A model generated the notes under the pieces. The model did not search any database. It was not told the origin of the DNA and saw only the letters and a program-made list of their open reading frames with translations. From assembly GCA_002840435.1 (NCBI GenBank), contig PHAT01000005.1, positions 484,460 through 548,459 on the forward strand: a stretch of DNA of 64,000 bases. The letters run 5' to 3'. The DNA comes from Deltaproteobacteria bacterium HGW-Deltaproteobacteria-6 (GTDB taxonomy: Bacteria; Desulfobacterota; Syntrophia; Syntrophales; Smithellaceae). This document shows, in pieces, positions 9,558 through 55,174 of the stretch. The position numbers were made by a program, and so were the translations under genes. Position 1 is the stretch's first letter. Each line of letters begins with the position of its first letter.

Positions 9558-10766
9558 ATGAGCAGAGAAGTAGTATTTGTAGAGGGTATCAGGACGGCCT
9601 TTGGAACGCTGGGGAAAACCCTGCGGACAATCCTGGGCGAAGAAATTGCCGGCATGGCTCTGAAAGGTCTTGTCGAAAAATCAAAAGTGATTGAAAAGGG
9701 TGGAGTTGTTGACTGCTGTTTCATGGGATCGGCCATTGGACCGAACACGGCGATCAATGGAGCCCGCTGGCCTGTTTTGGCTTCCGGTCTTCCGCTCAGC
9801 ACATCGGCTTCCTATATTGAAATGCAGTGCGGTTCCGCGATTGACTCCATCAATCACGCCGCCTGGAAAATCCTGGCCGGTCAGGCGGACATCATCATCG
9901 CCGGCGGTTATGAATCTTACAGCAACGCACCGTGCCGTTTCCCGATGACCACGGAACCTTACAAGATGATTCCGCCGCTGCCGATTGCTTTTTCGCAGTC
10001 TCCCACCCGCGACGCCGCAACAATGAACATGGGCCTCACGGCGGAAAAACTCCAGAAGATGTATAACATTTCGCGCGAAGCGCAGGATGAATTCTCTTTC
10101 CGCAGCCAGCAGCGTACCCAGGCAGCCATTGCCTCCGGCTTCTGCGCTCAGGATATCATGCCGATCATGGTTCCGCAGGGAAAGAAACCCCCCATCGAGT
10201 TCAAAGTGGATGAATTCCCCCGCGCCGAAACGACGATGGAAGGCCTTGCGAAACTGCCGCCCGCATTCATTAAAGACGGAACCGTCACCGCTGGCAACTC
10301 TTCCGGACGCAACGACGGCGCAGCCTTCGTTTTGATGATGACCAAGGAAAAAGCTCTGGAACTGGGTTTCAAGCCCTGGGCCAAGTGGCTGGCTGGCGGC
10401 GACTATGGCGTCGATCCCACCATCATGGGTATTGCGCCTGCTTACGCCGTTCCGATGGCGCTCAAACGCGCAGGCATTAAGATGAGCCAGCTCGACGTTA
10501 TCGAATGCAACGAAGCGTTCGCCGTTCAGAACCTCGCGGTGGCCGCGGAACTCGAAAAACAGACCGGTGATAAAGTGGATTTCAATAAATGGAATCCCAA
10601 TGGCGGCGCCATCTCCTACGGTCATCCCAATGGCGCATCCGGCGCCCGTATCTGCATCTTCACCATGCGCGAACTGCAGAAAAAAGGCGGCAAATACGGT
10701 TGCTTCAGTTCCTGCTGCGGCGGCGGTCTGGGTGTAGGAACGGTTATCGAAAACCTGATGGTCTAG
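9558..10766 (+). CDS. thiolase (acetyl-CoA C-acyl/acetyltransferase)
   Basis: 402 aa. Active-site Cys context MQCGSA. NGGAISYGHPNGASGAR and C-terminal CCGGGLG. AGGAGG RBS. Confidence 0.9.
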   Translation: MSREVVFVEGIRTAFGTLGKTLRTILGEEIAGMALKGLVEKSKVIEKGGVVDCCFMGSAIGPNTAINGARWPVLASGLPLSTSASYIEMQCGSAIDSINHAAWKILAGQADIIIAGGYESYSNAPCRFPMTTEPYKMIPPLPIAFSQSPTRDAATMNMGLTAEKLQKMYNISREAQDEFSFRSQQRTQAAIASGFCAQDIMPIMVPQGKKPPIEFKVDEFPRAETTMEGLAKLPPAFIKDGTVTAGNSSGRNDGAAFVLMMTKEKALELGFKPWAKWLAGGDYGVDPTIMGIAPAYAVPMALKRAGIKMSQLDVIECNEAFAVQNLAVAAELEKQTGDKVDFNKWNPNGGAISYGHPNGASGARICIFTMRELQKKGGKYGCFSSCCGGGLGVGTVIENLMV

Positions 10767-17575: not shown

Positions 17576-18712
17576 TCAGGGTTTTTTGCCGATCAGGTCA
17601 ATGATGGTGATTTCCGGCGGGGCAAAGACGCGAATGGGTGGACCCCAGGTGCCGGCGCCCCGGCTGACATAGAGTTGCTTGTTCGGGGCGAGTTCATGCA
17701 AACCGTAGTTTTTAGGAAAATATAGTTTCGTGACCAGTCCGAAAGGAAAAATCTGGCCGCCATGTGTGTGGCCGGAGAGGTGTAAATTGAAATTGGCCCA
17801 TTCATCGATGCGGGGTTGATGCTTTAACAGCAGAACAAAGCCGTCGCGCTTTTCGGACAGAGCCTTTTTAAAAAAATCTCTTTTATTGGAATCGCTCCAT
17901 CTGAGGCCGGTGATGTCGTCCTGACCGAAAATGGTGATGCCTGCCGCCTGTGTGATGTCATCGCGCAGCAGGCGGAAGCCCGCCGCTTCCGTAAAGGCGA
18001 TGGATTTTTCGAGCCCCGCGTAATATTCATGATTGCCGAAAATGGCAAATTTGCCGTAGGGTGCTTTGATCGCATCGAAACGTTTAGCATCCCCCAGGAT
18101 ATTGTCGAGTTCTCCATCGAGGAGATCACCCGTGGAAACCAGAATATCGGGCCGGCATTCCCGGATCCGCTCCAGAAGCGGATTTAAACGGTTGTTGCGG
18201 ATGATGATCCCCACATGCACGTCGGAGATCTGGACGATGCGAAGTTGTCCGTTGCCGGGGAGAAACTGGTTGGTGGTAATTTGCAGATTTCTGACGCGGA
18301 TTCGCTGAGCATCGATGTAACCATAGGCCACGAGGCCTGTGGCCAGAAGCACGGCAATACCGAACGTGGCGGTTTTGAGCGTGAGCGTGCCGGTTTCGGG
18401 AACGATCAACTTGTGGATAATCCGGATCAATTCCAGCGAAATGCTTAAAAAGAAAAAAAGAAAAACAAACGCCATCCAGACATAGCCGGTAATGGCGGCC
18501 AGCTGTGCCAGCTGTTCTTGATGGAGGGATTCCAGTATCCGGACAATGACCGGCGCAAGAATCAGCAGGATGATAAGGATCAGAATCGCACTCTGTAAAA
18601 AACCCGAAAAGTGCAGGATGCTTCTGGCCCGGAAAAAGAAATAAAAATTAATCCCGCCGTAAAGGCATAAAAAGGTTAAAAGAAAAAGAATCATCTTGGC
18701 TTCCATATTCAT
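17576..18712 (-). CDS. membrane-anchored metallophosphoesterase (YkuE-like)
   Basis: Four to five N-terminal TM helices. Motifs ISDVHVG, GDLLDG, GNHEYY and GHTHGGQ. Confidence 0.8.
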   Translation of the reverse strand: MNMEAKMILFLLTFLCLYGGINFYFFFRARSILHFSGFLQSAILILIILLILAPVIVRILESLHQEQLAQLAAITGYVWMAFVFLFFFLSISLELIRIIHKLIVPETGTLTLKTATFGIAVLLATGLVAYGYIDAQRIRVRNLQITTNQFLPGNGQLRIVQISDVHVGIIIRNNRLNPLLERIRECRPDILVSTGDLLDGELDNILGDAKRFDAIKAPYGKFAIFGNHEYYAGLEKSIAFTEAAGFRLLRDDITQAAGITIFGQDDITGLRWSDSNKRDFFKKALSEKRDGFVLLLKHQPRIDEWANFNLHLSGHTHGGQIFPFGLVTKLYFPKNYGLHELAPNKQLYVSRGAGTWGPPIRVFAPPEITIIDLIGKKP

Positions 18713-18828
18713 CAGCTTTATCGGCGAAGCTAAAGGAAAACGAAACAGAAGTCAATCATTAAGGAAGTACAGATTGGTATTGACAAGGGGAATTCCATAA
18801 TATAGATACGACATCTCTTAAATGGATG

Positions 18829-18904
<76 letters not shown>

Positions 18905-19248
18905 TAAAATCATGCAGTTAGCCGATAACAGATACTTCCTTCTATTACCCGCATCAAATTTTTAATCAACCGGCCTTGATAGTTGAATCGACCTCAGGTG
19001 TCAGCATTATTAACCGGCAATACGGTTATTTCGCTGCTGCCGGTGATCTCTGCTGCACGGGTCCGCTTTCAATTTCTGCTGAAATTTACCGTCTTCGTTT
19101 TTGTGCAGTGGTGTCATATCGTTCAACGCCATGAAATTCCCGCAGAGGATGCAGGTGTTCTGTTTTTTCTGCTTTTCTAATGCGTGACGGATCCGGTGAT
19201 GTCTTGATCAGAAAGGCTGAGATGTTATTTACTTGCAATAAAAAAGAG

Positions 19249-19267
19249 CTATGATAAATTATCATAG
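19249..19267. repeat. 19-bp perfect palindrome CTATGATAA-A-TTATCATAG in the long leader of the glycan cluster (operator candidate)
   Basis: Read directly: 9+1+9 nt, self-complementary, about 300 nt upstream of the GT2 start. Confidence 0.5.
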
Positions 19268-19563
19268 AGTCGGTTTGATAATAATATAATATCGATGCAA
19301 ACTTTTCATGTTCTTACCCCTGCCACCAAAGGAAAGCCATGGCGCAGGAGAGAAATAAATTTTGTGCTTTTTTTGATAACATTGATGTTATGTCACCGCA
19401 CCGGGACGCTCTTGGTAATCAATACGGGTGATGTACAGTAACACCTCTTTCTTGAGGAAAGCCGGCGCTACTTCTCGCTCGCGGGGTGCGCTTACAAAAC
19501 AAATCATGTTCCACAGCAAAACGAGCGCTAAAAAGAGGATCTGTTAAGCTTAAGGATAATTTT

Positions 19564-20505
19564 ATGGCAGATAAATCCATATCCGTTGTCGTTCCCGTTT
19601 ATAACAGTGAGCAATCCTTGCCGCTGCTTATAGACCGTCTTAACAAAGTCCTCATGGCTTCCTGTCAGGATTTCGAGGTGATCCTAGTTAACGACGGAAG
19701 CCGTGACGGAAGCTGGGAAACCATAGTTTCATTGGCTCAACAATATTCCTGGCTTCATGGCATAAATCTTATGCGTAATTACGGCCAGCATAATGCTCTG
19801 CTGTGCGGTATCCGCAAAGCTAAACACGAGCTTATTGTTACCATCGATGACGATCTCCAGAACCCGCCCGAGGAAATCCCCGGGCTTGTCGCCCGGCTGG
19901 AAGAGGGCTACGACGTCGTTTATGGCACGCCACAGGCACAGCAGCATGGAGTATTGCGCGATCTGGCCTCCATCATTACTAAAATGGCGCTTCAGGGCTT
20001 CATGGGGGCGCATGCAGCTCGCCAGGTCAGTGCCTTCCGCGTATTCCGGACTGAATTGCGTGAAGCTTTCCATCAATACCACGGTTCCTTCGTCTCCATT
20101 GATGTTCTGCTGACCTGGGGAGCGGAAAAGTTCTCAGCGGTTTCTGTGCGGCATGAACCAAGGACCATCGGGCAGTCTAATTATACCGTTTCGCGTCTCT
20201 TCAGGCACGCCATAAATATGATGACAGGATTTTCCGTCATGCCGCTGCAGGTTGCAAGTTTCCTGGGATTTGCCTGCACGATTTTTGGCCTTTTCATCCT
20301 GGTCTATGTCATTACCATTTTTCTGGTTCACGGCAGTCCGGTTCCAGGGTTTACGTTTCTTGCGTCGATTATTGCAATATTTTCCGGCGCACAGCTCCTT
20401 GCTCTGGGCATAATCGGCGAATATCTGGCACGTATGCACTTTCGAAGCTTGGGTCATCCCTCCAGTGTCATACGCGGTACAACGGATGACAAAAAGGGAA
20501 AATAA
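19564..20505 (+). CDS. family-2 glycosyltransferase, polyprenyl-phosphate sugar synthase type (ArnC/GtrB/DPM1-like)
   Basis: VVVPVYN…VNDGSRD…DDDLQNPP catalytic core plus two C-terminal TM helices. The ATG at 19564 has an AAGGA RBS; the ORF opens at 19486. Confidence 0.8.
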   Translation: MADKSISVVVPVYNSEQSLPLLIDRLNKVLMASCQDFEVILVNDGSRDGSWETIVSLAQQYSWLHGINLMRNYGQHNALLCGIRKAKHELIVTIDDDLQNPPEEIPGLVARLEEGYDVVYGTPQAQQHGVLRDLASIITKMALQGFMGAHAARQVSAFRVFRTELREAFHQYHGSFVSIDVLLTWGAEKFSAVSVRHEPRTIGQSNYTVSRLFRHAINMMTGFSVMPLQVASFLGFACTIFGLFILVYVITIFLVHGSPVPGFTFLASIIAIFSGAQLLALGIIGEYLARMHFRSLGHPSSVIRGTTDDKKGK

Positions 20506-20509
20506 ATTC

Positions 20510-21268
20510 ATGGTTAATAATGAGAGTTTAAATATATCGCTTGCCCCGCTTGAAGAAGAACGCTTCGGCATCAGATCGGCAAGAGCCGCTAATATTACAA
20601 GAGGCAATCTTTCACAGGTCATTGATTTCTGCCAGCAAAACAAGGTAACACTTCTCATTGCCAGATGTACGGCAACCCATCTGGATGCCGTACAAGAAAT
20701 GGAACACCTGGGTTTTTTTGTGGCCGACACACTTGTTTATTACGGCCGAAGTCTGGCGACGGGCATATTACCAGCGCCAGACTCGCCGGTTGTTATCCGA
20801 CCCCTTGAGAAAGGGGAGGGTTCCCAAGTGCAGGCCATTGCCGAAGAAGCTTTTAGCAACTACATCAGTCATTATCATCAGGATAAACGTCTGGACAGAA
20901 AAAAATGCAATGATGTTTATGGAGATTGGGCAAATGAAGCATGCTTCAATCGGGATGAATCACACGAAGTATTGATTGCTCTTCGCAATAATGAAATATC
21001 AGCCTTTGCGACGCTTCGGTTAAATAATCCTCAGCAGGGGGAAGGCGTCTTGTTTGGTATTGGTCGGGACGCTCAAGGCGCGGGTATATATAAGTTACTC
21101 ATGATGGCTGGAATGCGCTGGTGCGCTGATTTACATGCTCAGGAAATGATTGTTTCCACACAAATCATTAATGTCGCAGTCCAAAAGGTATGGGTGCGAT
21201 TAGGTTTTGAACCGCAAAAATATGTTTATACGCTGCATAAGTGGTTCGATCGCCAATCAACATTATGA
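20510..21268 (+). CDS. GNAT N-acetyltransferase resembling WecD (dTDP-4-amino-4,6-dideoxygalactose acyltransferase)
   Basis: Two-domain layout. The N-terminal L..E..RFG..SA…D.VQEMEHLGF matches my recollection of E. coli WecD (L.WE..FFG..SA…LDALQQLGF). C-terminal GNAT core. Confidence 0.6.
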   Translation: MVNNESLNISLAPLEEERFGIRSARAANITRGNLSQVIDFCQQNKVTLLIARCTATHLDAVQEMEHLGFFVADTLVYYGRSLATGILPAPDSPVVIRPLEKGEGSQVQAIAEEAFSNYISHYHQDKRLDRKKCNDVYGDWANEACFNRDESHEVLIALRNNEISAFATLRLNNPQQGEGVLFGIGRDAQGAGIYKLLMMAGMRWCADLHAQEMIVSTQIINVAVQKVWVRLGFEPQKYVYTLHKWFDRQSTL

Positions 21269-21511
21269 TGATCCTGGGAACGATGACTGAACCTGAAAGC
21301 ATATTCAGTGAAAAACCATGGATGTGTTCACATGACGGATAGAGTCCGGCTCATCGGGCATTTATCTTGCGCCGGCCTTTCATGCGGATCTTAATCATCA
21401 TGCGAAATATGCTCAGGGATATGGTCGCGGGAAAACTTGCTGATTAACCATAATATTGCTTCTGCCTGTCGGTGGCAGCGCCCGTTTTCATCGCCACCCA
21501 GGAGGTAAATG

Positions 21512-22660
21512 ATGGAGCCTTTCAAAATACCCTATAATAAGCCGTTCATTGTCGGCAGGGAACTGCTCTATATTGAGCAGGCCGTCATTGAAAATCGCCA
21601 TATTGCCGGTGACGGGCTCTTTACGAAGAAATGCCATGTCTGGCTTGAGGAGCGGTTGCGATGCCAAAAAGCGCTCCTGACCCATTCCTGCACGGCTGCG
21701 CTGGAAATGGCTGCAATCCTCTGTGATATTCAGCCCGGCGACGAAATTATCATGCCCTCATTTACTTTTGTATCGACGGCCAACGCATTTGTTCTTCGGG
21801 GAGGTGTGCCGGTATTTGTGGATATTCGGCGCGACACGCTTAATATTGATGAACGTCTTATTGAAGCTGCAATCACATCCCGGACGAAAGCAATCGTTCC
21901 GGTCCATTATGCAGGAGTGGCCTGTGCGATGGACGCCATTCTGGATATAGCGCAAAGACATAATCTGCTCGTTGTCGAGGATGCCGCTCAAGCGTTGCTT
22001 TCAACTTACAAGGGCCGGTTTCTGGGTACTATAGGGAATTTCGGCTGTTTAAGTTTTCATGAAACCAAAAATATCATCAGCGGTGAAGGCGGCGCCCTCC
22101 TGGTGAATGATCTTCGTTTCGAGGAGAGATCCGAAATTATAAGACAAAAAGGGACGAATCGAATAAAATTTCTAAAAGGCGAGGTGGACAAATATACCTG
22201 GGTTGATAAGGGATCTTCTTTTCTGCCAAGTGAACTGATCGGAGCATTTTTGTATGCTCAGCTTGAACAAGCCGAAAAAATTATCGATGCCAGGTGTAGA
22301 ATATACCATTATTACTGCGACCTTTTGACGCCTTTGAGTGAGAAGAAGTTTTTACGGCTTCCGATTACAGAAGAAGGATGTATTAATAACGGCCATATTT
22401 TTTATGTTATAACTCGCTCAGCCGAAGAGCGGTCTGAACTGATAGAATTTCTGAAGGACAAGTCAATTTTGCCGGTATTCCATTACATACCTCTTCACTC
22501 GTCTCCTGCCGGTGTCAAATATGGCAGAGCCTGCGGGACAATGTCTGTGACAGACGACATCAGTCAGAGGATATTACGCCTGCCGATGTACTATGAATTG
22601 AGTGAAGGCGATGTAGAAATGGTTGTACGGGCTGTGGAAAGTTTCTATAACAATAAGTAA
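21512..22660 (+). CDS. wecE: dTDP-4-amino-4,6-dideoxygalactose transaminase-like (DegT/DnrJ/EryC1 family, WecE type)
   Basis: Long stretches match the remembered E. coli WecE sequence (PGDEIIMPSFTFVSTANAFVLRG, VPVHYAGVAC, SFHETKN PLP-Lys, DKYTW.D.GSS). GGAGG RBS. Confidence 0.8.
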   Translation: MEPFKIPYNKPFIVGRELLYIEQAVIENRHIAGDGLFTKKCHVWLEERLRCQKALLTHSCTAALEMAAILCDIQPGDEIIMPSFTFVSTANAFVLRGGVPVFVDIRRDTLNIDERLIEAAITSRTKAIVPVHYAGVACAMDAILDIAQRHNLLVVEDAAQALLSTYKGRFLGTIGNFGCLSFHETKNIISGEGGALLVNDLRFEERSEIIRQKGTNRIKFLKGEVDKYTWVDKGSSFLPSELIGAFLYAQLEQAEKIIDARCRIYHYYCDLLTPLSEKKFLRLPITEEGCINNGHIFYVITRSAEERSELIEFLKDKSILPVFHYIPLHSSPAGVKYGRACGTMSVTDDISQRILRLPMYYELSEGDVEMVVRAVESFYNNK

Positions 22661-22682
22661 ATTAAAAACAGGAAAGAATCAT

Positions 22683-23477
22683 TTGGAAAAAGCGCATAAA
22701 ATTCAATCTATTATTAAAAAAGATTTTGATAATAATAAAAGTGTTCAGAATACAGGCATTACAAAAGATAATGGCCTGTTTTGTAAGATTCAAAACTTTC
22801 TGAAAAAGAACGGAACCGTATATTACTTTCTCCTGAATTTGTTTGCCCCGGTTCTGACAAGTTTTGACTATCGAAAAACCGTAAACAGGATGCTGAAGAA
22901 ATATGGCCGGGAACATTTTATATTGAACGTTGGCAGTGGACCAACGTATCTTCATAACCGGCAGGACGTTATTAATGTAGATTTTTTTCCATACAGCGAA
23001 ATCGACATCGTGGCGGATATCACGGATTTGCCGATAAAAGACGGGGGAGTGGATTTCATTATCAATATTGCTGTTCTTGAACATGTTGACAAAGCCCATG
23101 TTGTTGTCCGGGAAATGTTCAGAATGCTAAAACCCGGGGGTGAATTGCTGTGTTATGTTCCATTTGTTATGCCATTTCATGGAGCGCCGCAGGATTTTCA
23201 GCGCTGGACAATGCCGGGTATGGAAAAACTCTTTTCAGAGTTTGAAATTATAGAAATGGGCATTGGCGCCGGACCTACATCCGCGATGCTCTGGATTGTC
23301 CAGGAATGGCTTGCCATTCTCTTTTCCTTCGGTAGTAAAACATTACACGATATCATAATGATGGTCCTGATGGTTTTGACCATGCCCGTAAAGTTCATGG
23401 ATATGATTTTAGTTAAGTTCCCTAATGCAGAAAAAATTGCCAGTGGATTTTATGTGGTTGCTAAAAAAAAGGAATGA
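22683..23477 (+). CDS. class I SAM-dependent methyltransferase with hydrophobic N- and C-terminal segments
   Basis: LNVGSGPT SAM motif. The C-terminal hydrophobic stretch is probably membrane-associated. The TTG at 22683 has an AGGAAAG RBS; the ORF opens at 22623. Confidence 0.7.
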   Translation: MEKAHKIQSIIKKDFDNNKSVQNTGITKDNGLFCKIQNFLKKNGTVYYFLLNLFAPVLTSFDYRKTVNRMLKKYGREHFILNVGSGPTYLHNRQDVINVDFFPYSEIDIVADITDLPIKDGGVDFIINIAVLEHVDKAHVVVREMFRMLKPGGELLCYVPFVMPFHGAPQDFQRWTMPGMEKLFSEFEIIEMGIGAGPTSAMLWIVQEWLAILFSFGSKTLHDIIMMVLMVLTMPVKFMDMILVKFPNAEKIASGFYVVAKKKE

Positions 23478-23544
23478 TCTGATTATCCTGAAGCACCGGT
23501 TATGCATATCACGGGGATAAAAAGTAAACAGCAGGAGACAATAC

Positions 23545-25122
23545 TTGCATATGATTTTACAAAAGCTGGCGGATAATATTTTCCGCAGCACAGGATGTCT
23601 TTACAGTGTCTTCCTTCTATTCATCATTGTCTTAAAATGGCCTTTTTTTTCTATGCCGCCGGTCTGGGATGAAGCATTCAGTATTTTTCCGGCGGCGGAT
23701 TTCTTAGTCAGGCATGGTTTTGATTATTCGCTTTTAATGGCTCAGCCGGGTTACCATGACGGCGGCCCGACAGCGCATGCATTGTCTCTGCTCACCCTGG
23801 TGACGGCTCTTGTTTTAAAAATAACCGGCGGCGGGAAAATGGCCTGGCTGATTTTGCATGTTTTACAGTGGCTGATGGCGGCGGCCATAGGCACTCTGCT
23901 GGCGCGGATATACAGCAGGTTGTTTGATGATATGACGGCTTTCCTGCTTGCGGCAGCTTCGCTTGCCTATCCCCTCATGCTTGCCCAAATCGGTCGCATG
24001 TACATCGAAATTCCCTTACTTTTCTTCTCCCTGTTTGCATTTTATAATTATCGCAATGACCGGATATGGTTAACCTCCCTGTGCCTTTTGGCTGCCTGTC
24101 TGACCAAAGGAAGCGGTATTATTGCCGTCGGGGTCGTGTGTATCCTGGCATTATTTTCAAAGAACAAATCTCTTAAAAATAATATTTTGGACTTTTTCGT
24201 TATTTTGATCCCTTCTTTTGCCGTGCTTTTTGCGCTGTCGAGCATCGGACGTCTTCAACTTGCATTTTCCAATCAATCAACTTTTACGGATCTTTTAAAT
24301 GAAATCATTTACCGCAATCTCCATACGCAGCAGATCTATATATCCTCCATGCCGGAATTAAATTTTATTATTGCCGGAAGTGTTGTGATATCCATATTTG
24401 TCTTATTGAAAAATATTATTCGATATGTAAAATCGCAGGAAAATGATTCTAATATCATCATTTATAATTGCCTGTTTATCATTGCATTTTCCATCTTCCA
24501 TTTTGTCGTGTATGCTTATATACAAATAAGTGACAGTGCTTCTTTTATATCCAGATACTTTTTTTATGTTATTCCCTCCATGTTTTTAGTCATTTATTAT
24601 TCAATAGATGAGATTTTAAAAGTAGCAAAGATAAGAATCTTCGTTCTTTTATTGATCATAATAATTTTCCTTATTAACAGGAATGGAATGTTTTACCCGG
24701 AAATTCCCCATTCAAGTATTGCCATAGCAGAACGGTCGGAAGAATATGTCGACGGGTATCGGGTTCAGAAAGAGTATATACGGGTGATTGAAAATGAAGT
24801 GCCGGAAAACATACCGGTCTATGTCGATCTTCCGGATTATTTTTTAACGCATTATCCTGTTTCTCAGTATGTCGGGAAACCGCTGGCCAATGTTTATTTA
24901 CTGAGGCATGTTGTAAAATTAAATGGCAGCAAGTTCATATATCCGGATCATTTTGTTTTGGTGTATAATTATCCATGGTTAGGAGGGAGGCACATTAAAT
25001 ATTTATTGCAGGATGTGTCCGGAAATAAAGAATTTTTATCCAAGGAATTGGGATATTTTAAAAGAGGTTGTTTCAGCGCCAGGGTGGTTGAAGTTAAGCG
25101 AAAACAAACGGCGTCTTTTTGA
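23545..25122 (+). CDS. polytopic membrane glycosyltransferase candidate, GT-C fold (ArnT/PMT-like), with a C-terminal soluble domain
   Basis: 525 aa with 10 or more hydrophobic helices. Acidic WDE motif in the first predicted external loop and a roughly 150-aa non-hydrophobic C-terminus. Very AT-rich. Confidence 0.55.
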   Translation: MHMILQKLADNIFRSTGCLYSVFLLFIIVLKWPFFSMPPVWDEAFSIFPAADFLVRHGFDYSLLMAQPGYHDGGPTAHALSLLTLVTALVLKITGGGKMAWLILHVLQWLMAAAIGTLLARIYSRLFDDMTAFLLAAASLAYPLMLAQIGRMYIEIPLLFFSLFAFYNYRNDRIWLTSLCLLAACLTKGSGIIAVGVVCILALFSKNKSLKNNILDFFVILIPSFAVLFALSSIGRLQLAFSNQSTFTDLLNEIIYRNLHTQQIYISSMPELNFIIAGSVVISIFVLLKNIIRYVKSQENDSNIIIYNCLFIIAFSIFHFVVYAYIQISDSASFISRYFFYVIPSMFLVIYYSIDEILKVAKIRIFVLLLIIIIFLINRNGMFYPEIPHSSIAIAERSEEYVDGYRVQKEYIRVIENEVPENIPVYVDLPDYFLTHYPVSQYVGKPLANVYLLRHVVKLNGSKFIYPDHFVLVYNYPWLGGRHIKYLLQDVSGNKEFLSKELGYFKRGCFSARVVEVKRKQTASF

Positions 25123-25192
25123 TGGACAAAATGTTTTTTCGAGAGTGCAATACGAATGAATAAAACTCAATAGCAATCGCAAAGGAACAAAT

Positions 25193-25627
25193 ATGAAAAA
25201 AGTTTTTCCGGTTATTTTCTTACCATTCCTGATAGTCTTTCTGGTCGCAACGCCGCTAATTGCTTCATCAGATTGGGTGGAGCATTATACCGATGAGAGC
25301 GGGGATGTGATTTCCTATAAAATAGAAAACAAAATAAAAAATGTGGTTCAGGTGTGGGTAAAACGGGTCCTGACTGAGGAAGGTGAAAAAATATTTATCC
25401 AGGACAGCAGACAAAATGGATTGCCAACGGAAGGATGGCGCAGGCTCGAACATTTTACATCTCTATATGAGATCGATTGCCAGGCGAAAAGCGGCCGGGT
25501 GTTGTCCGTCGTCATTTATGATAAGGAAGGGAAAGTCGTGTATGCTGCTTCTTTTGGTGAGCCAAAATGGGAATATATGGTTCCTGATTCCATTGGAGAC
25601 TCTTTCCGGAAAGAGGTCTGTAATTAG
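25193..25627 (+). CDS. small secreted protein, Adhesin_E-like (surface-adhesin protein E-like) domain, paralog 1
   Basis: Signal peptide. The W…IDC…YD..G.V…W.Y.VPDS.G…VC pattern is shared with the next gene. Confidence 0.5.
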   Translation: MKKVFPVIFLPFLIVFLVATPLIASSDWVEHYTDESGDVISYKIENKIKNVVQVWVKRVLTEEGEKIFIQDSRQNGLPTEGWRRLEHFTSLYEIDCQAKSGRVLSVVIYDKEGKVVYAASFGEPKWEYMVPDSIGDSFRKEVCN

Positions 25628-25671
25628 CTCCGCCATTCCAAAATTGAAAGGTTCAAGGTAAAATAAAGAGG

Positions 25672-26148
25672 ATGATGAAAAATAAATTACAATTCCTGTT
25701 CATGCTTTTAATGGTCACCGTTCTTTCATTGCCTTCCGTCTGCTTTTCACAACAGCCAAATCCCAAAATATGGGAACCTCTTGAATATAATTCATATTAC
25801 AATAAAAAAATTATTACAAAATCACCGGACATTCGATTAGTCTGGACATACAAAACAATCACGGATGATCGCAGGGAAAAGAGCATCGAAGAAGTCAAAC
25901 AATATGATTTGGAGAACTCCGTAAAATACCGGAACTATCATCATGAAACAATCTTGTGGAACATCGATTGCAGGAATAAAATGATTATGATGGAAGAGTT
26001 TATAGATTTTGACAGGCACGGAAAGGTATTGGACCGCTACAGATATAGTCATAGTCAATGGGATCGTATTATACCCAACAGTAAAGGAGAGCAGCTATAT
26101 CGAAATGTTTGCATAAGCCAGAAAAAACCATCGAAAAAGAAGAAATAG
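25672..26148 (+). CDS. small secreted protein, Adhesin_E-like domain, paralog 2, with a Lys-rich tail
   Basis: Signal peptide. W…IDC…FD..G.V…W..IIPNS.G…VC. C-terminal KKPSKKKK. Confidence 0.5.
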   Translation: MMKNKLQFLFMLLMVTVLSLPSVCFSQQPNPKIWEPLEYNSYYNKKIITKSPDIRLVWTYKTITDDRREKSIEEVKQYDLENSVKYRNYHHETILWNIDCRNKMIMMEEFIDFDRHGKVLDRYRYSHSQWDRIIPNSKGEQLYRNVCISQKKPSKKKK

Positions 26149-26511
26149 TCAGATTTGATGCAGCAACCCGGCAAACCGCCGGAAAGGAATTGCCGGACAA
26201 CTTCCAAGAAACTGTGCATTGATTAAAATGTCCGTTGAGATATTTTAAGACCGCACACCGCTATGCCTGATAAAGATATTTTCTGAAAAAACCATTTAAG
26301 GCTCCTCGGGTGTTCCCGATTTGCGATGCTCCTCTGCTCAATAAAATGGGCTATCTTACACTGAACAATTTTGATATGGTTATCCTTCGTCAGCGGGTTA
26401 ACCCTGAATCCCCGGATCGTCATTCCGGACGCATCCTGTAAGACTGGCGGGGTATTGAAGGCTGCGGATGAACCGGTTGAAAAGAGCATTGGCATTCCGG
26501 GAGGTTTTGGC

Positions 26512-50492: not shown

Positions 50493-51569
50493 ATGGATTT
50501 AAAAGAACTATTTACAGGAAAAAAACAGCTTGTCGGGCTGGATATCGGATCAAACTCTTTGAAGCTGGCTGAGATCATCACGACCTCCAGCGGTCAGGTA
50601 CTCAACCGGTTCCGTCAAATCCCCGTCCCATCCGGAACGATCGTTGACGGCGTTGTGGAAAATCCCAGTGTTTTAGCGTCAACGATCAAAGAACTTTTCC
50701 ATAATTCCGGTTGCAAAGGAAAAGGAATTGTAACCTCTCTTTCCGGCAGTTCCGTCATTGTTAAAAAAGTAACGCTTGCCCAGATGGAAGAGACGGAACT
50801 GCGTGAGTTGATCCATGATGAAGCCGGTAAATACCTTCCTTTTGATAATATGGATGATGTAAATTATGATTTCCAGATCCTGGGAGATAATGAACAGAAC
50901 CCCAATCAAATGGACGTTATCATTGTTGCCGCCAAGAAGACGGATGTCAGCAGTTACCTGGATGCGATTACCGCGGCCGGTCTTACGGTCATGATCATGG
51001 ATGTGGATTCTTTTGCGCTGGAAACCATGTATGAGTCCAACTACGAATTTGAAGAGAATGATATTATCGTCATCGTTAACATTGGCGCGCACTTGACCAA
51101 TATTAATGTCATTAAAGGTGGAATATCCATCTTTACCAGAGATTTTACGATTGCCGGAAATGAGATCACCGAAAGGTTGCAGGAAAAATATCAGGTGTCG
51201 GCGGAAGAAGCCGAGGGCATGAAAACAGACGGTCTTCCCGGCAGCGAGCAGGAAAACATGGATCTGAAAAACGTTATTTTAGATTGTGCCGAACCGATAT
51301 GTTCAGAGATCGAAAGATCCATTGATTACTTCCGTTCAACATTCGGGGGCGATTATATCAAGCATGTGTATCTATCGGGCGGATCATCAAGAATTGCGGG
51401 TTTAGACAACCATTTATCGCAGCGATTAAATATAGAGACGGAATTAATTAATCCACTTTCAAAAATCGGCTATAACAAAAAAAATATTGATGCGGGGAAG
51501 CTCGACAGCATCAAGACAATCGGCGCTGTGGCCATTGGGTTGGGTTTAAGGAAAATAGGTGATAAATGA
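50493..51569 (+). CDS. pilM: type IV pilus assembly protein PilM
   Basis: Actin-like ATPase fold (VGLDIGS.SLK…). ATGA overlap with pilN. Confidence 0.9.
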   Translation: MDLKELFTGKKQLVGLDIGSNSLKLAEIITTSSGQVLNRFRQIPVPSGTIVDGVVENPSVLASTIKELFHNSGCKGKGIVTSLSGSSVIVKKVTLAQMEETELRELIHDEAGKYLPFDNMDDVNYDFQILGDNEQNPNQMDVIIVAAKKTDVSSYLDAITAAGLTVMIMDVDSFALETMYESNYEFEENDIIVIVNIGAHLTNINVIKGGISIFTRDFTIAGNEITERLQEKYQVSAEEAEGMKTDGLPGSEQENMDLKNVILDCAEPICSEIERSIDYFRSTFGGDYIKHVYLSGGSSRIAGLDNHLSQRLNIETELINPLSKIGYNKKNIDAGKLDSIKTIGAVAIGLGLRKIGDK

Positions 51570-52114
51570 TAAAGATTAATCTTTTACCTTACCGTGAAAA
51601 AGAAAAGAAAGATAATCTTGCCAGACAGATTACGATTATTGCAGGGTCGTTTATCTTTTTTATTCTTTGTCTTGTTCTGTTCCAGATTCATATGGTGACA
51701 CAAGTAAAGGATATAGAAAAAAAACTTGCGGATTCCAAAGAAACCTTGAAAGTTTTAGATGCAAAAATTGGAAACCTGGAAAAGTTTAAACGCCAGAAAG
51801 CCGACCTGGAGTTAAAACTCGGTGTGATCAGCACGCTGGAAGAAAATCGATTATTGCCGGTCAAAACGCTTGATGATTTATCCATGCTGGTTCCGCAAAG
51901 AAACGTTTGGCTGACAAGAATTGTACAAAACAATGACAGTCTGACGATCGAGGGAGTTGGCCGTGACAATATTGTTGCTGCTGATTTTATGAAAACCATT
52001 GAAAATTTTGCCCCCATCAAGTCGGTTGATTTGGTTTCGTCAAAAAACGTGGTGATTGCCGACACAACCTTGCAGCAGTTTATTTTTAACTGCAAACTGA
52101 AAAAGGGATTTTAA
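51566..52114 (+). CDS. pilN: type IV pilus assembly protein PilN
   Basis: MIKINLLPYREK, then a TM and a coiled coil, which is typical of PilN. Confidence 0.85.
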   Translation: MIKINLLPYREKEKKDNLARQITIIAGSFIFFILCLVLFQIHMVTQVKDIEKKLADSKETLKVLDAKIGNLEKFKRQKADLELKLGVISTLEENRLLPVKTLDDLSMLVPQRNVWLTRIVQNNDSLTIEGVGRDNIVAADFMKTIENFAPIKSVDLVSSKNVVIADTTLQQFIFNCKLKKGF

Positions 52115-52116
52115 TT

Positions 52117-52878
52117 ATGCCCATAACCGTAAACGATATTAAAAAATTGTCCCCGCAGGCCAAGGCCCTGATCGTTGTTATAGTTATTTTTCTTATCGGT
52201 TATGTGTATTACGCTTATTTTCTATCCGATACGTTAAACAAAAAAGCAGAACTTGATAAAGATTATCAGGATGTTGAATCACAAATTACACAGAAAGAAA
52301 AATTAGCGAAGCAATTCGATAAATACAAAACCGATGTTGCAGCGCTGGAACAGAATTATAAAGTGGCTTTGTTAAAACTTCCCGACCAGCGGGAAATCCC
52401 CGGCCTTTTTCATTCCGTCGCTATGGCGGGCCGGGATACGGGTGTTGAGTTTTTATTGTTTGAGCCGAAAGCCTCTGTGCCTAAAACCATGGCTGATGCC
52501 GGACCTGATAAACTTTCTGCAAAACTAAAGCCTTCCGATAAGAGGCAGGAAGAGAAGGAAAAAGCAGACTCTCAAAAAACGGCTAACATACCGGCGAAGC
52601 CCGGTGATGGAAAGAAGGCGCCGCCGCCGGCTCCAGAACCTTTTTATGAGGAAATACCGGTAAAAGTGACCGTAACGGGCAATTTTCAGAATATTGTTCA
52701 CTTTTTTGAAAAAGTGGCCAAATTGCCTCGTATTGTCAATATTTCCGATATTTCTATGGGTGAACGAAGAGCTGTTAAAGGACGGGGACATCTTATTACT
52801 ACATCCTGTACCGTGAAAACGTACATGTTTGTGGATAAAAAAGAGAAAACAAGTGAAAAGAAAAATGAAAAAAATTAA
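52117..52878 (+). CDS. pilO: type IV pilus assembly protein PilO (with a low-complexity insertion)
   Basis: TM, coiled coil, LP….IP.L and G.F..I..F…VA.LPRIV motifs. Extra K/E/P-rich segment at residues ~123-175. Confidence 0.8.
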   Translation: MPITVNDIKKLSPQAKALIVVIVIFLIGYVYYAYFLSDTLNKKAELDKDYQDVESQITQKEKLAKQFDKYKTDVAALEQNYKVALLKLPDQREIPGLFHSVAMAGRDTGVEFLLFEPKASVPKTMADAGPDKLSAKLKPSDKRQEEKEKADSQKTANIPAKPGDGKKAPPPAPEPFYEEIPVKVTVTGNFQNIVHFFEKVAKLPRIVNISDISMGERRAVKGRGHLITTSCTVKTYMFVDKKEKTSEKKNEKN

Positions 52879-53386
52879 AATTATCATTTTGTGCAATTTG
52901 TTGATTCTTTTTACAACAGCTTTTTGTGCTTTCGGCGCAGAAACAAATAAACCGGTTGTGAAAACATTGCCATCCGCTCCGCGAACCGGCCAGCCTCAAA
53001 TACAAGCACCCGCCTTGCCGCCTGTGCCAACGCCGCCGGTGAATGTTTACAGTTATAATCCGTCGGGCAAGCCCGATCCGTTTAAACCTTTTATTGATGT
53101 ACAAGTCGCGGCTGTGGCGAAAAAAGAAACTAAAGTGGAATCCATTTTCCCATTGCAGCGGGAGGAAGCGGAAAGTTTCAACCTGGTTGGAATCATCGGG
53201 GATCAGACGCGTCGTGTGGCAGTTGTGCAGGATTCGGCTAAAAAGTTTTATCCGCTTTTTATCGGAACGCGCATCGGTCTTCGTAACGGGAAGGTAACCA
53301 ATATTCTGGCAGATCGAGTAACAGTGGATGAATTGAACGGGAAAAAAGTAAAAAGAATCATTTTGAAACTGCGTAAAAATATTTAA
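52865..53386 (+). CDS. pilP: type IV pilus assembly protein PilP
   Basis: Signal peptide, a Pro-rich linker, and a C-terminal beta domain. Positioned between pilO and pilQ. The ORF opens at 52829. Confidence 0.7.
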   Translation: MKKIKIIILCNLLILFTTAFCAFGAETNKPVVKTLPSAPRTGQPQIQAPALPPVPTPPVNVYSYNPSGKPDPFKPFIDVQVAAVAKKETKVESIFPLQREEAESFNLVGIIGDQTRRVAVVQDSAKKFYPLFIGTRIGLRNGKVTNILADRVTVDELNGKKVKRIILKLRKNI

Positions 53387-53398
53387 TGAGGTAATATC

Positions 53399-55174
53399 AT
53401 GAAACAATATTTATCCAAAATAATCCCTGTTTTCATAATCCTTTGGGTTTTTTTATGTGCTCCGGCCGGGGTAATTACGGATTTAAGCGCAGCTCAAGAT
53501 AATAATCCCGGTGCTAAAAGTGAAACAACAAATGTAGGTTATCTGGAAAACATATTATTTGAAAAGTTGTCCGGCCGGGAAAGGATCAATCTTGTTGTAT
53601 CCCAGCAGCCCTCCATTGCTCCCACGTCCATTCAGGGAGATAATAGCCTGCTCATCAGTCTGGAAAATCTGTATGCGCCTGACAACATGCGCGACACCCT
53701 GGCGTGGAAACAGTCTCTTAATGTAACTGATGTGCAGGTGCAGCAGCGGACGTCGGAAGGCAAACAATGGATTAATTTGAAAATTAATCTTAAAGAAATT
53801 GTTCCCTATTCCATAAGACAGGAAGGAAAGATTGTTGTTATTGACTTCAATATTTCCGGTGTGGAAGCAAAGTTAAGCGCGGCTAGTCAAAAGTCCGGAG
53901 ACGCGCCGGCTGGCGCTGCTTCCAGTGAAGGGAATAGTGCAAAGCAACAGGCCGGTCGTGAGGCAACTAAAAGATATACGGATAGAATCGTGTCGCTTGA
54001 TTTTCAGGATGCGGATATCAAGAGCGTTTTACGTTTAATGTCTGAATACGGCAATGTGAGTATCATTTCCGGAGATGATGTTAAGGGTAATGTTACTCTA
54101 ACGATGAAAAATGTACCCTGGGAACAGGCGTTGGATTCAATTCTGGATATCAAAGGCCTTGGCAAGAAGCAAATGGGCAATGTCATCAGCGTTATGACTC
54201 TGGACAGAAAGAAAAAAGATGAAGCAGACAAACTCAAGGCGGAAGAGGATAAGGTAAAAGCGGATGACGCCCGCAAGGCAAGAGAACAACAAATTCTGGT
54301 CGAAAAAGGGAAACTGCGCCAGATCCTGATTGAAGCGAAAATCGTAGAAGTGACGGATGATTTTACCAGAAATCTTGGTATTCAATGGGGATTCGGCCAG
54401 CACGCATCTACCGGGAATTACGGATTGGGTTTTTCCGGCGGGATGAATCCGCTTTCGACAACCAATTCTCAATCGATCAGGTATCCGTCTGAAGTGGTCT
54501 CCAAGACCGCCACCACGCCATTAACAATGGCGGCTGTCAATTTTCCCGCCATAGTGGCCGGACCGACCTTCGGCCTTGTTTTTGGAGGGGCCAGCGGCTA
54601 TATCGAAACTCAATTGCAGGCCCTGGAAACAACCGCTCAAGGTAAAATAATTTCAGCGCCCAGAGTCGTGACGATGGACAATGTGAAAGCCGTTATCAAA
54701 CAGGGTGATGAAGTGCCCTATGTGACGCCGGCTTCAGGCACTTCAGCGGCAAGCGTTACTTTTAAGGAAGCTGTTTTGCGGTTGGAGGTAAAACCGAAAA
54801 TTACCGATGAAGGCCGGATTTCCATGGAAATCAAAGCGACTAACGACACACCGGACTATGCTACAGGACAAACACTTCAGGGCAATCCGCCCATTCGCAA
54901 GAATGAAGTGGAATCCAAGGTTGTCGTGTCCGATGGAGATACGGTCGTTATCGGCGGCATATCCAAAAATACAGAAAGTACGTCGGTATCCGGACTTCCC
55001 TTGTTTTATAAGATTCCGGTTTTGGGATGGCTGTTTAAAACGGAAGGCGTCACAAGGCAAAAACGGCAATTGATGATATTTATCACGCCAAAGATATTAT
55101 CGGAATCCGGATATGTTGAAGATGAGTGCAATACGTCGCTTGCCAATCAATCGGACCGTTGCCGTAAAGAATAG
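53399..55174 (+). CDS. pilQ: type IV pilus secretin PilQ
   Basis: AMIN-like N-terminus, a secretin N-domain (LDFQDADIKSVLRL), and a C-terminal secretin domain (…GDTVVIGG…VPVLGWLF…LMIFITP). Confidence 0.9.
   Translation: MKQYLSKIIPVFIILWVFLCAPAGVITDLSAAQDNNPGAKSETTNVGYLENILFEKLSGRERINLVVSQQPSIAPTSIQGDNSLLISLENLYAPDNMRDTLAWKQSLNVTDVQVQQRTSEGKQWINLKINLKEIVPYSIRQEGKIVVIDFNISGVEAKLSAASQKSGDAPAGAASSEGNSAKQQAGREATKRYTDRIVSLDFQDADIKSVLRLMSEYGNVSIISGDDVKGNVTLTMKNVPWEQALDSILDIKGLGKKQMGNVISVMTLDRKKKDEADKLKAEEDKVKADDARKAREQQILVEKGKLRQILIEAKIVEVTDDFTRNLGIQWGFGQHASTGNYGLGFSGGMNPLSTTNSQSIRYPSEVVSKTATTPLTMAAVNFPAIVAGPTFGLVFGGASGYIETQLQALETTAQGKIISAPRVVTMDNVKAVIKQGDEVPYVTPASGTSAASVTFKEAVLRLEVKPKITDEGRISMEIKATNDTPDYATGQTLQGNPPIRKNEVESKVVVSDGDTVVIGGISKNTESTSVSGLPLFYKIPVLGWLFKTEGVTRQKRQLMIFITPKILSESGYVEDECNTSLANQSDRCRKE

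Follow-up and report, generated by a model that had tools for sequence, protein, structure and literature searches.

Five Smithellaceae genes that may form an Arn/Gtr-like glycosylation pathway fed by a dTDP-6-deoxyhexose branch

Five adjacent, co-directional genes in the metagenome-assembled genome (MAG) Deltaproteobacteria bacterium HGW-Deltaproteobacteria-6 appear to encode an Arn/Gtr-like "three-component" extracytoplasmic glycosylation pathway that is fed by a dTDP-6-deoxyhexose branch. We assign this reading a probability of roughly 0.6. The genes occupy positions 19564-25122 of a 64-kb window, by which we mean the whole stretch of 64,000 nucleotides that was analyzed (contig PHAT01000005.1, positions 484,460 to 548,459). 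A preliminary description of the same DNA had proposed an Arn-like, lipid-carrier-type periplasmic glycosylation built on a dTDP-Fuc4N(Ac) pathway, and this proposal is supported by the identities of the components, by the predicted GT-C fold of the last protein and by recurrent gene linkage. All five open reading frames (ORFs) that it listed are present on the + strand:

19564..20505, + strand: polyprenyl-phosphate glycosyltransferase of family GT2, with a GT-A domain and two C-terminal transmembrane (TM) helices (PF00535, E 1e-29)
20510..21268, + strand: two-domain GNAT N-acyltransferase, a distant relative of WecD (PF00583, E 6e-9)
21509..22660, + strand: WecE-clade aminotransferase dependent on pyridoxal phosphate (NF008687, TIGR02379, 4piw)
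22683..23477, + strand: class I S-adenosylmethionine (SAM) methyltransferase with a hydrophobic C-terminal helical hairpin (Methyltransf_11, E 5e-12)
23551..25122, + strand: predicted GT-C-fold membrane glycosyltransferase of an unnamed family, 523 amino acids (aa) (AlphaFold2 (AF2) and Foldseek; ORF from 23545)

The starts given for the GNAT and methyltransferase genes are those of the database proteins (P0045 for the GNAT). The longest GNAT ORF opens at 20465, and the methyltransferase ORF opens at 22623 with TTG, an alternative start.

In the proposed pathway, the aminotransferase would convert dTDP-4-keto-6-deoxy-D-glucose, its predicted substrate, into a dTDP-4-amino-4,6-dideoxyhexose, most simply Fuc4N, with the galacto configuration at C4, or alternatively the gluco-configured Qui4N. 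The substrate would be supplied by RmlA and RmlB encoded elsewhere. The GNAT would N-acylate the amine, in the role of ArnA formylation or WecD acetylation, and the GT2 would transfer the N-acyl sugar to undecaprenyl phosphate (Und-P) at the inner membrane face. The methyltransferase, which is probably membrane-associated through its C-terminal hairpin, would methylate the sugar, perhaps in its lipid-linked form. A flippase from elsewhere would bring the lipid-linked sugar to the periplasmic face, where the GT-C enzyme, by using a conserved Asp/Glu of its first external loop, would transfer the sugar to an envelope acceptor. The most likely acceptor is lipopolysaccharide (LPS), at lipid A or core, and a polysaccharide or a secreted protein is possible. 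In this scheme, we infer which nucleotide the donor of the GT2 carries, which sugar exactly is built, where methylation falls among the steps and what accepts the sugar.

The aminotransferase is, as judged by its sequence, a genuine member of the WecE clade and not of the ArnB or perosamine clades. It passes both WecE models (595.5 bits on NF008687, cut-off 375; 573.8 bits on TIGR02379, cut-off 434.85), shares about 58% identity with E. coli WecE (4piw, E 1.3e-138) and carries the SFHETKN lysine motif, all in agreement with the WecE-like enzyme of the preliminary description. The next-best matches, to perosamine synthetase (approximately 1e-45) and to ArnB (approximately 1e-43), are about 90 orders of magnitude worse in E-value, and the ArnB model gives 190.8 bits vs a cut-off of 631. 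These scores speak against the alternative, raised beforehand, of an enzyme from an ArnB or perosamine clade.

The GT2 aligns over its full length with a solved ArnC structure (9hwj, E 1.6e-50, residues 4-299) and a solved GtrB structure (5ekp, E 3e-41), and its match to an archaeal Dol-P-Man synthase is weaker than to either. A DDDLQNPPEE motif is seen in the translation, and hydropathy indicates two C-terminal hydrophobic segments at about residues 223-288. Together with the PF00535 match, these features bear out the earlier view of an ArnC/GtrB-type GT2 with two C-terminal TM helices. ArnC is the best-scoring named family. Because the score on the ArnC model (NF007986) is 199.8 bits, below the equivalog cut-off of 529, the GT2 is classed here as ArnC-like, but not as ArnC. 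L-Ara4N is the homomorphous five-carbon analog of D-Fuc4N. It therefore makes sense that ArnC is the best named family for the GT2, and it is chemically plausible that an enzyme closest to ArnC handles 4-N-acyl-Fuc4N. By this analogy, Und-P-Ara4FN would have its 6-methyl homolog in the proposed intermediate.

The GNAT belongs to a family of at least 301 members. The WecD model NF008212 covers it nearly from end to end (profile positions 12-229 of 232, E 5e-13), and the WecD structure 2fs5 aligns with it end to end, although weakly (E 0.086). The two-domain WecD architecture that had been noticed is therefore upheld, but the resemblance is distant, with 49.3 bits vs a cut-off of 219 on NF008212 and 31.6 bits vs a cut-off of 195 on TIGR02382.

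The AF2 model of the methyltransferase has a pLDDT of 87.6 and ends in a long helical hairpin. The preliminary description had given this protein hydrophobic ends. The C-terminal end is confirmed, but residues 221-246, within the hairpin of the model, are the only strongly hydrophobic stretch that was found. The best fold matches are the sugar O-methyltransferases AtmM and RebM, at a weak TM-score of about 0.45 that corresponds to a generic class I fold. RebM and AtmM methylate sugars on glycosides. In three loci with GT-C homologs (L008, L011 and L013 in the list below), members of this methyltransferase family lie between the aminotransferase and GT-C genes. Elsewhere, in MAGs of Bdellovibrionaceae and Desulfobacteraceae, they are found beside DegT aminotransferases, 310-aa GT2s, LPG_synthase_TM proteins and large membrane proteins that match no Pfam family (the last in L030 and L031).

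The 523-aa protein was proposed to have a GT-C/ArnT/PMT architecture, and the AF2 model, built on an alignment of 33 sequences, leads us to assign it a GT-C fold with confidence (pLDDT 89.2, pTM 0.90). In a Foldseek search of the PDB, the first 29 matches are all GT-C enzymes, with E-values down to 2.5e-5 and TM-scores of about 0.5; they include ALG9, ArnT (5ezm), STT3, ALG12, Pmt4, PglB, AftA and Emb. The preliminary description gave a polytopic protein of 525 aa whose first external loop carries a WDE motif and whose C-terminal domain is soluble, and this picture holds: about 12 hydrophobic segments precede a C-terminal alpha/beta domain, which is predicted to be periplasmic. Among the 33 homologs, W41-D42 is invariant and E43 nearly so, and the motif lies directly after TM1. 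GT-C enzymes carry catalytic acidic residues just after TM1.

The match is one of fold and not of sequence. A suggested relation to PF13231 (PMT_2) and PF02366 (PMT/ArnT) is not recovered by Pfam, in which nothing is found at E<=0.01 (YfhO, GT_STM0557_N and GT87 included), and a sequence profile search of the PDB gave no match. The sole NCBIfam match is to AZOBR_p60025 "cell surface glycopolymer formation" (E 1.5e-4, 21 bits vs a cut-off of 150). Within a library of 1.84 billion proteins, the family comprises 1590 cluster representatives at E<=1e-3 and 395 at E<=1e-30; a search of plasmids gave no match. A hypothetical protein of the HGW-Deltaproteobacteria-6 MAG has exactly the sequence of the 523-aa protein (100% identity), whose nearest relatives are in Smithella and Smithellaceae MAGs.

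Several other large membrane proteins were compared with this family by hhalign and hmmsearch, and no relation was detectable for those of 541 aa in L026, 508 aa in L032, 620 aa in L030 and 612 aa in L031. Two more families of polytopic membrane proteins without Pfam matches recur beside the GT-C family or in its slot. One is a pair (L001 464-1909 and L029 7436-8971) that is 45% identical over the full length, and the other is a group of three (L002 8396-9925, L012 804-2414 and L025 10843-12894) at about 23-24% identity.

The preliminary description suggested an examination of gene neighborhoods, and conserved linkage is indeed observed. Twelve loci, including the window, have a GT-C homolog that is at least 38% identical to that of the window. 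They are listed with GT-C identity, the state of the WecE-like gene and other genes:

Window: GT-C 100%; WecE-like gene adjacent; family methyltransferase, ArnC-like GT2, GNAT
L001: GT-C 74%; WecE-like gene absent; 69-aa remnant of the methyltransferase C-terminus
L002: GT-C 53%; WecE-like gene absent
L007: GT-C 60%; WecE-like gene adjacent
L008: GT-C 62%; WecE-like gene adjacent; family methyltransferase, ArnC-like GT2, LPG_synthase_TM
L011: GT-C 58%; WecE-like gene adjacent; family methyltransferase, B12-radical SAM enzyme
L012: GT-C 54%; WecE-like gene absent; 536-aa membrane protein upstream
L013: GT-C 63%; WecE-like gene adjacent; family methyltransferase
L014: GT-C 38%; WecE-like gene adjacent; a different methyltransferase
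L015: GT-C 48%; WecE-like gene adjacent; methyltransferase, LPG_synthase_TM, pilin-like genes
L027: GT-C 48%; WecE-like gene adjacent; two methyltransferases, two small EamA proteins, GT2-GtrA fusion
L028: GT-C 48%; WecE-like gene adjacent; methyltransferase, LPG_synthase_TM, pilin-like genes

A WecE-like gene, 55-76% identical to that of the window, is immediately upstream of the GT-C gene in nine of the 12, and one is also linked to the GT-C gene of L017, at 28% GT-C identity. The fullest gene sets among these loci include L008, a ten-gene operon of an ArnC-like GT2, an ATP-grasp ligase and LPG_synthase_TM, then a B12-radical SAM enzyme, a second DegT aminotransferase and two methyltransferases, which ends with the WecE-like aminotransferase, the family methyltransferase and the GT-C gene. 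L027 is from the cultured organism Desulfonatronum zhilinae and contains acyl-activation genes (ACP, KR, AMP-ligase and GNAT), two small ArnE/F-like EamA proteins, two methyltransferases, the aminotransferase, the GT-C gene and a GT2 fused to a GtrA-type domain. L015 and L028 each combine LPG_synthase_TM, a methyltransferase, the aminotransferase and the GT-C gene. A remote GT-C member with about 29% identity (L029) is found among genes for PagL, a PIG-L deacetylase, a GT9 heptosyltransferase and a 311-aa GT2, which is an LPS-modification setting.

Some of these loci have further features. In L001, which is from a Smithella MAG, the methyltransferase remnant (9720-9926, 57% identity) is upstream of the GT-C gene, the aminotransferase is gone, and the GT-C gene is situated among several large polytopic and TPR membrane proteins, GT2s and a methyltransferase. 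Shikimate-type genes occur inside or beside GT-C family loci (L015 4551-6956, L028 3607-6012 and L021 7016-8318), as class II DAHP synthase with DHQ synthase or as HpcH aldolase with shikimate kinase, and L028 also has an ATP-grasp ligase. Their presence hints that the sugar may carry an unusual acyl or aryl group.

The first three genes of the module recur in a second set of genomes. Six contexts of the GNAT, including the window, were examined, and five have GT2, GNAT and aminotransferase in that order. Outside the window, the proteins of the trio are 60-67% (GT2), 47-51% (GNAT) and 55-67% (aminotransferase) identical to those of the window. GT2 orthologs head the trio in L022, L025 and L026, and the GNAT is between GT2 and aminotransferase in these three and in L033; in the sixth context (L034), the GNAT is alone among sulfatases. 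The large membrane protein that accompanies the trio differs from locus to locus. It is a member of PF19528, the Salmonella GtrC-type family, in Aggregatilineales (Chloroflexota), a 683-aa TPR membrane protein in L025 and a 431-aa protein between TPR proteins in L033, and in L026 the trio has YfhO upstream and a 541-aa protein, a PMT_2 protein and a GT87 protein downstream. In L025 (8859-9218, where it had not been called as a gene) and L033 (7855-8217), the coding sequence of a 120-aa EamA-type (ArnE/F-like) membrane protein separates the GNAT gene from the aminotransferase gene. The same position in the window is a non-coding gap of 240 bp (21269-21508), in which no remnant of a flippase gene is detectable. 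A more distant analog belongs to a Wzx/Wzy-type locus on a plasmid of Pseudorhodobacter turbinis; there, GtrA and GT2 genes are divergent from a group of genes for a 508-aa membrane protein, rffA and a GNAT.

The analysis thus shows what kinds of proteins the genes encode, which folds these are modeled to have and that their linkage is conserved. We favor one shared pathway because the linkage of a lipid-sugar synthase, an aminotransferase, an N-acyltransferase, methyltransferases and a GT-C-fold or similar polytopic protein, often with a flippase candidate, is repeated across phyla. A broader proposal is more tentative and less likely than not to be correct: that the ArnC-like GT2, the GNAT and the WecE-type aminotransferase, sometimes with a small EamA flippase, are a widespread, undescribed and portable cassette that makes a polyprenyl-phosphate-linked 4-acylamino-4,6-dideoxyhexose; that its GT2 is the first dTDP-sugar-fed enzyme of the ArnC/GtrB class; that the cassette is combined with several GT-C families in lineages that include Thermodesulfobacteriota and Chloroflexota; that the unnamed family, with about 1600 cluster representatives, founds a new glycosyltransferase family; and that in diderms the cassette modifies lipid A or core.

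The window itself would hold a minimal version of the pathway. Pfam scans of most window ORFs of at least 150 aa revealed no rml, Wzx, Wzy, WecF, deacylase or flippase genes, as the preliminary description had also noted (rmlA/rmlB in particular), and likewise no RffG/RffH, WzxE or WzyE. A tblastn search of the window with flippase candidates from related loci gave no match. The flippase candidates that related loci carry are LPG_synthase_TM (L008, L015, L028 and L030), small EamA proteins (L025, L027 and L033) and GtrA (L027 and L032); no dedicated flippase of the GtrA, ArnE/F, MATE or a similar type is found in the window. The flippase and the rml products must therefore come from elsewhere in the version of the pathway that we propose, and, with no deacylase in the window, the delivered sugar would be neutral.

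Several points weigh against the proposed pathway. It is locally incomplete, in that the flippase, rmlA/rmlB and a deacylase are not in the 64 kb. The GT2 could load an unrelated UDP-sugar, and we know of no ArnC/GtrB-class enzyme that uses a dTDP-sugar. Close GT-C relatives in L001 and L002 have no adjacent aminotransferase, so the GT-C enzyme is not strictly dependent on it. The GNAT is beside no other GT-C family member that was examined, and its link to this GT-C protein is therefore seen in the window only. Finally, the hints as to the acceptor diverge among the LPS genes of L029, the pilin genes of L015 and L028, and two genes for surface-type proteins that directly follow the GT-C gene in the window:

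25193-25627 and 25672-26148: two tandem signal-peptide proteins of PF16747 (Adhesin_E, surface adhesin protein E)

These two proteins are possible acceptors, or they might be unrelated cargo, and they bear on a rival explanation that we consider improbable but that fares best among the three weighed here. According to it, the machinery is the same, but the GT-C protein is a protein O-glycosyltransferase (PMT/TfpW-like) that decorates neighboring secreted or surface proteins, namely the Adhesin_E-like proteins here and pilin-like proteins elsewhere. In L015 (11836-16818) and L028 (10886-15871), which are Syntrophales-type, three to four pilin-like (N_methyl) genes, one of about 1120 aa, come directly after the aminotransferase-GT-C pair. 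The presence of Pmt4 and the oligosaccharyltransferases STT3 and PglB among the best structure matches is also consistent with a protein target, but the structure matches as a whole fail to separate lipid, glycan and protein acceptors. Moreover, Adhesin_E-like genes are not conserved beside any other GT-C family member examined, and the distant member in L029 is among LPS genes.

Another explanation, which we regard as unlikely, is that two unrelated functions happen to be adjacent. The GT2 and the GT-C protein would be a Gtr-like pair for a common sugar (for example, glucose), and the aminotransferase, GNAT and methyltransferase would feed a cytoplasmic glycosyltransferase elsewhere. This would fit the score of the GT2 below the ArnC equivalog cut-off and a donor that is not readable from sequence, the 240-bp gap, which parts GT2-GNAT from aminotransferase-methyltransferase-GT-C, and the retention of GT-C genes without the aminotransferase in L001 and L002. 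However, the aminotransferase adjoins the GT-C family in nine of the 12 closer loci, and in the five GNAT contexts across phyla in which the GT2 is next to the GNAT and aminotransferase, none has a cytoplasmic glycosyltransferase in the operon. Such repeated linkage across phyla is hard to explain without a shared pathway.

That the genes are a piece of a conventional Wzx/Wzy locus (O-antigen or like that of enterobacterial common antigen (ECA)), with the 523-aa protein as polymerase or ligase, is very improbable: the locus of the P. turbinis analog also encodes a Wzx-type flippase and a member of the O-antigen ligase family, and the very weak AZOBR_p60025 match points in the same direction, but Wzx, Wzy, WecF, an initiating transferase and a chain-length regulator were not found in the window or the closer related loci, the predicted fold is GT-C with no Wzy_C or ligase among the structure matches, and the module is flanked by a tRNA, a metallophosphoesterase, a chemoreceptor and redox enzymes. 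The preliminary description had also allowed that related genomes might show the genes as a fragment of a Wzx/Wzy O-antigen locus, or that the 523-aa protein might model as a ligase, a polymerase or a non-GT-C fold. Instead, the same aminotransferase, methyltransferase and GT-C logic recurs in those genomes, and the model is of the GT-C type.

The pathway that we propose has the logic of the Arn system (PmrHFIJKLM; ArnB, ArnA, ArnC, ArnD, ArnE/F and ArnT), in which a nucleotide 4-keto sugar is aminated at C4 by an aminotransferase, and N-acylation, transfer to Und-P by an ArnC-type GT2 and periplasmic transfer by a GT-C enzyme follow. ArnC is the best named family for the GT2 of the module, and ArnT is among the top structure matches of its GT-C protein. 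The Arn pathway proper is not in the window, where no formyltransferase or deformylase gene was found and the ArnB and ArnC models score below cut-off. In contrast to Arn, the aminotransferase of the module is WecE and not ArnB, acylation is by a GNAT and not by the ArnA formyltransferase, an extra methyltransferase is present, the GT-C protein has no sequence match to the ArnT/PMT families, and there is no ArnD-type deacylase, so that the sugar would stay neutral, and no ArnE/F in the window. The nucleotide would be dTDP, whereas that of Arn is UDP.

Gtr-type systems (GtrA/GtrB/GtrC; CsbB/GtcA/YfhO; GacI-L; the pentofuranose systems of PMC11127046) likewise couple a GtrB-fold polyprenyl-phosphate-sugar synthase to a variable GT-C enzyme. 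The donor cassette pairs with several GT-C families (PF19528, YfhO and PMT_2), just as Gtr systems swap GtrC. Unlike the module, the known Gtr-type systems move common pool sugars (Glc, Gal, GlcNAc and pentofuranoses); the module has no local flippase and has its own tailoring enzymes for a predicted rare, N-acylated and methylated 4-amino-4,6-dideoxyhexose.

With the dTDP-Fuc4NAc branch of ECA synthesis (RffG/RffH, WecE, WecD and WecF), the module shares an aminotransferase that meets the WecE equivalog model and a GNAT that follows the two-domain WecD architecture. It differs in that WecF, WzxE and WzyE are lacking and the GNAT is under the WecD cut-off, and its product is predicted to be loaded singly on Und-P, whereas ECA synthesis adds the sugar to an Und-PP-linked repeat unit in the cytoplasm.

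In the Bordetella Lgm and Francisella Flm/NaxD systems, an ArnC-like GT2 and an ArnT-like GT-C enzyme add an amino sugar to lipid A via an N-acetylated Und-P intermediate, and the surroundings of L029, with its deacetylase and 311-aa GT2, resemble this arrangement. Unlike the module, Lgm and Flm have UDP-GlcNAc or UDP-GalNAc as their starting material, do without an aminotransferase and remove the acetyl group from the lipid-linked sugar; the window has no deacetylase. The neutral sugar that the module would deliver sets it apart from Arn, Lgm and Flm alike.

The module is not part of a polysaccharide locus. The rest of the window has housekeeping and syntrophy-type functions, including beta-oxidation enzymes, aldehyde:ferredoxin oxidoreductase, nusA, truB, pnp, RF3, pilMNOPQ, a chemoreceptor and a PAS histidine kinase. 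A single RNA feature is upstream, and it was the sole match in an Rfam scan of 18-27 kb:

18828-18903: tRNA-Thr(CGU), 660 bp upstream of the module

The G+C content drops from about 0.50 to 0.36-0.46 over 20.5-26.1 kb, from the GNAT gene to the Adhesin_E-like genes, the second of which has the lowest value of the region (0.36). The upstream tRNA and the G+C dip suggest that 18904-26150 is acquired DNA, although neither an integrase nor an att-like direct repeat of the tRNA end was found, and the codon bias of membrane proteins could be a partial cause of the dip. A promoter and terminator scan gave match counts equal to the shuffled expectation and hence no information. The pilMNOPQ operon for type IV pilus assembly (50493-55174), about 25 kb from the module, lies in a second low-G+C stretch (0.40-0.46). 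Upstream of the module, on the - strand at 17576-18712, is a gene for a membrane-anchored calcineurin-like phosphoesterase that has sub-threshold matches to the lipid A enzyme LpxG (82 bits vs a cut-off of 350) and to YaeI, and that is probably unrelated to the module.

Three-component periplasmic glycosylation is already well known, and new GT-C families still join it; GT136, for example, was founded recently (PMC11127046). The preliminary description knew of no system with the present combination. A search of the open-access literature (subscription literature was not covered) likewise found no description of a system with a WecE-derived amino sugar on Und-P, nor of this GT-C family.

Lipid-carrier-dependent periplasmic sugar additions alter antigenicity, phage receptors and resistance to antimicrobial peptides. 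To our knowledge, only a handful of sugars travel by this route, namely Ara4N, GlcN/GalN, Glc, Gal, GlcNAc, GalA and pentofuranoses. If the proposed pathway is correct, rare 4-amino-4,6-dideoxyhexoses would join this list, and the route would have an entry point for dTDP-sugars. A sizeable new GT-C family would also be defined, and a portable donor cassette whose large membrane partners vary, and include several known GT-C transferases, would be useful for glycoengineering. The module is of interest for envelope glycobiology, and Desulfonatronum zhilinae, as a cultured organism with a complete version of the system, offers a concrete and testable candidate.

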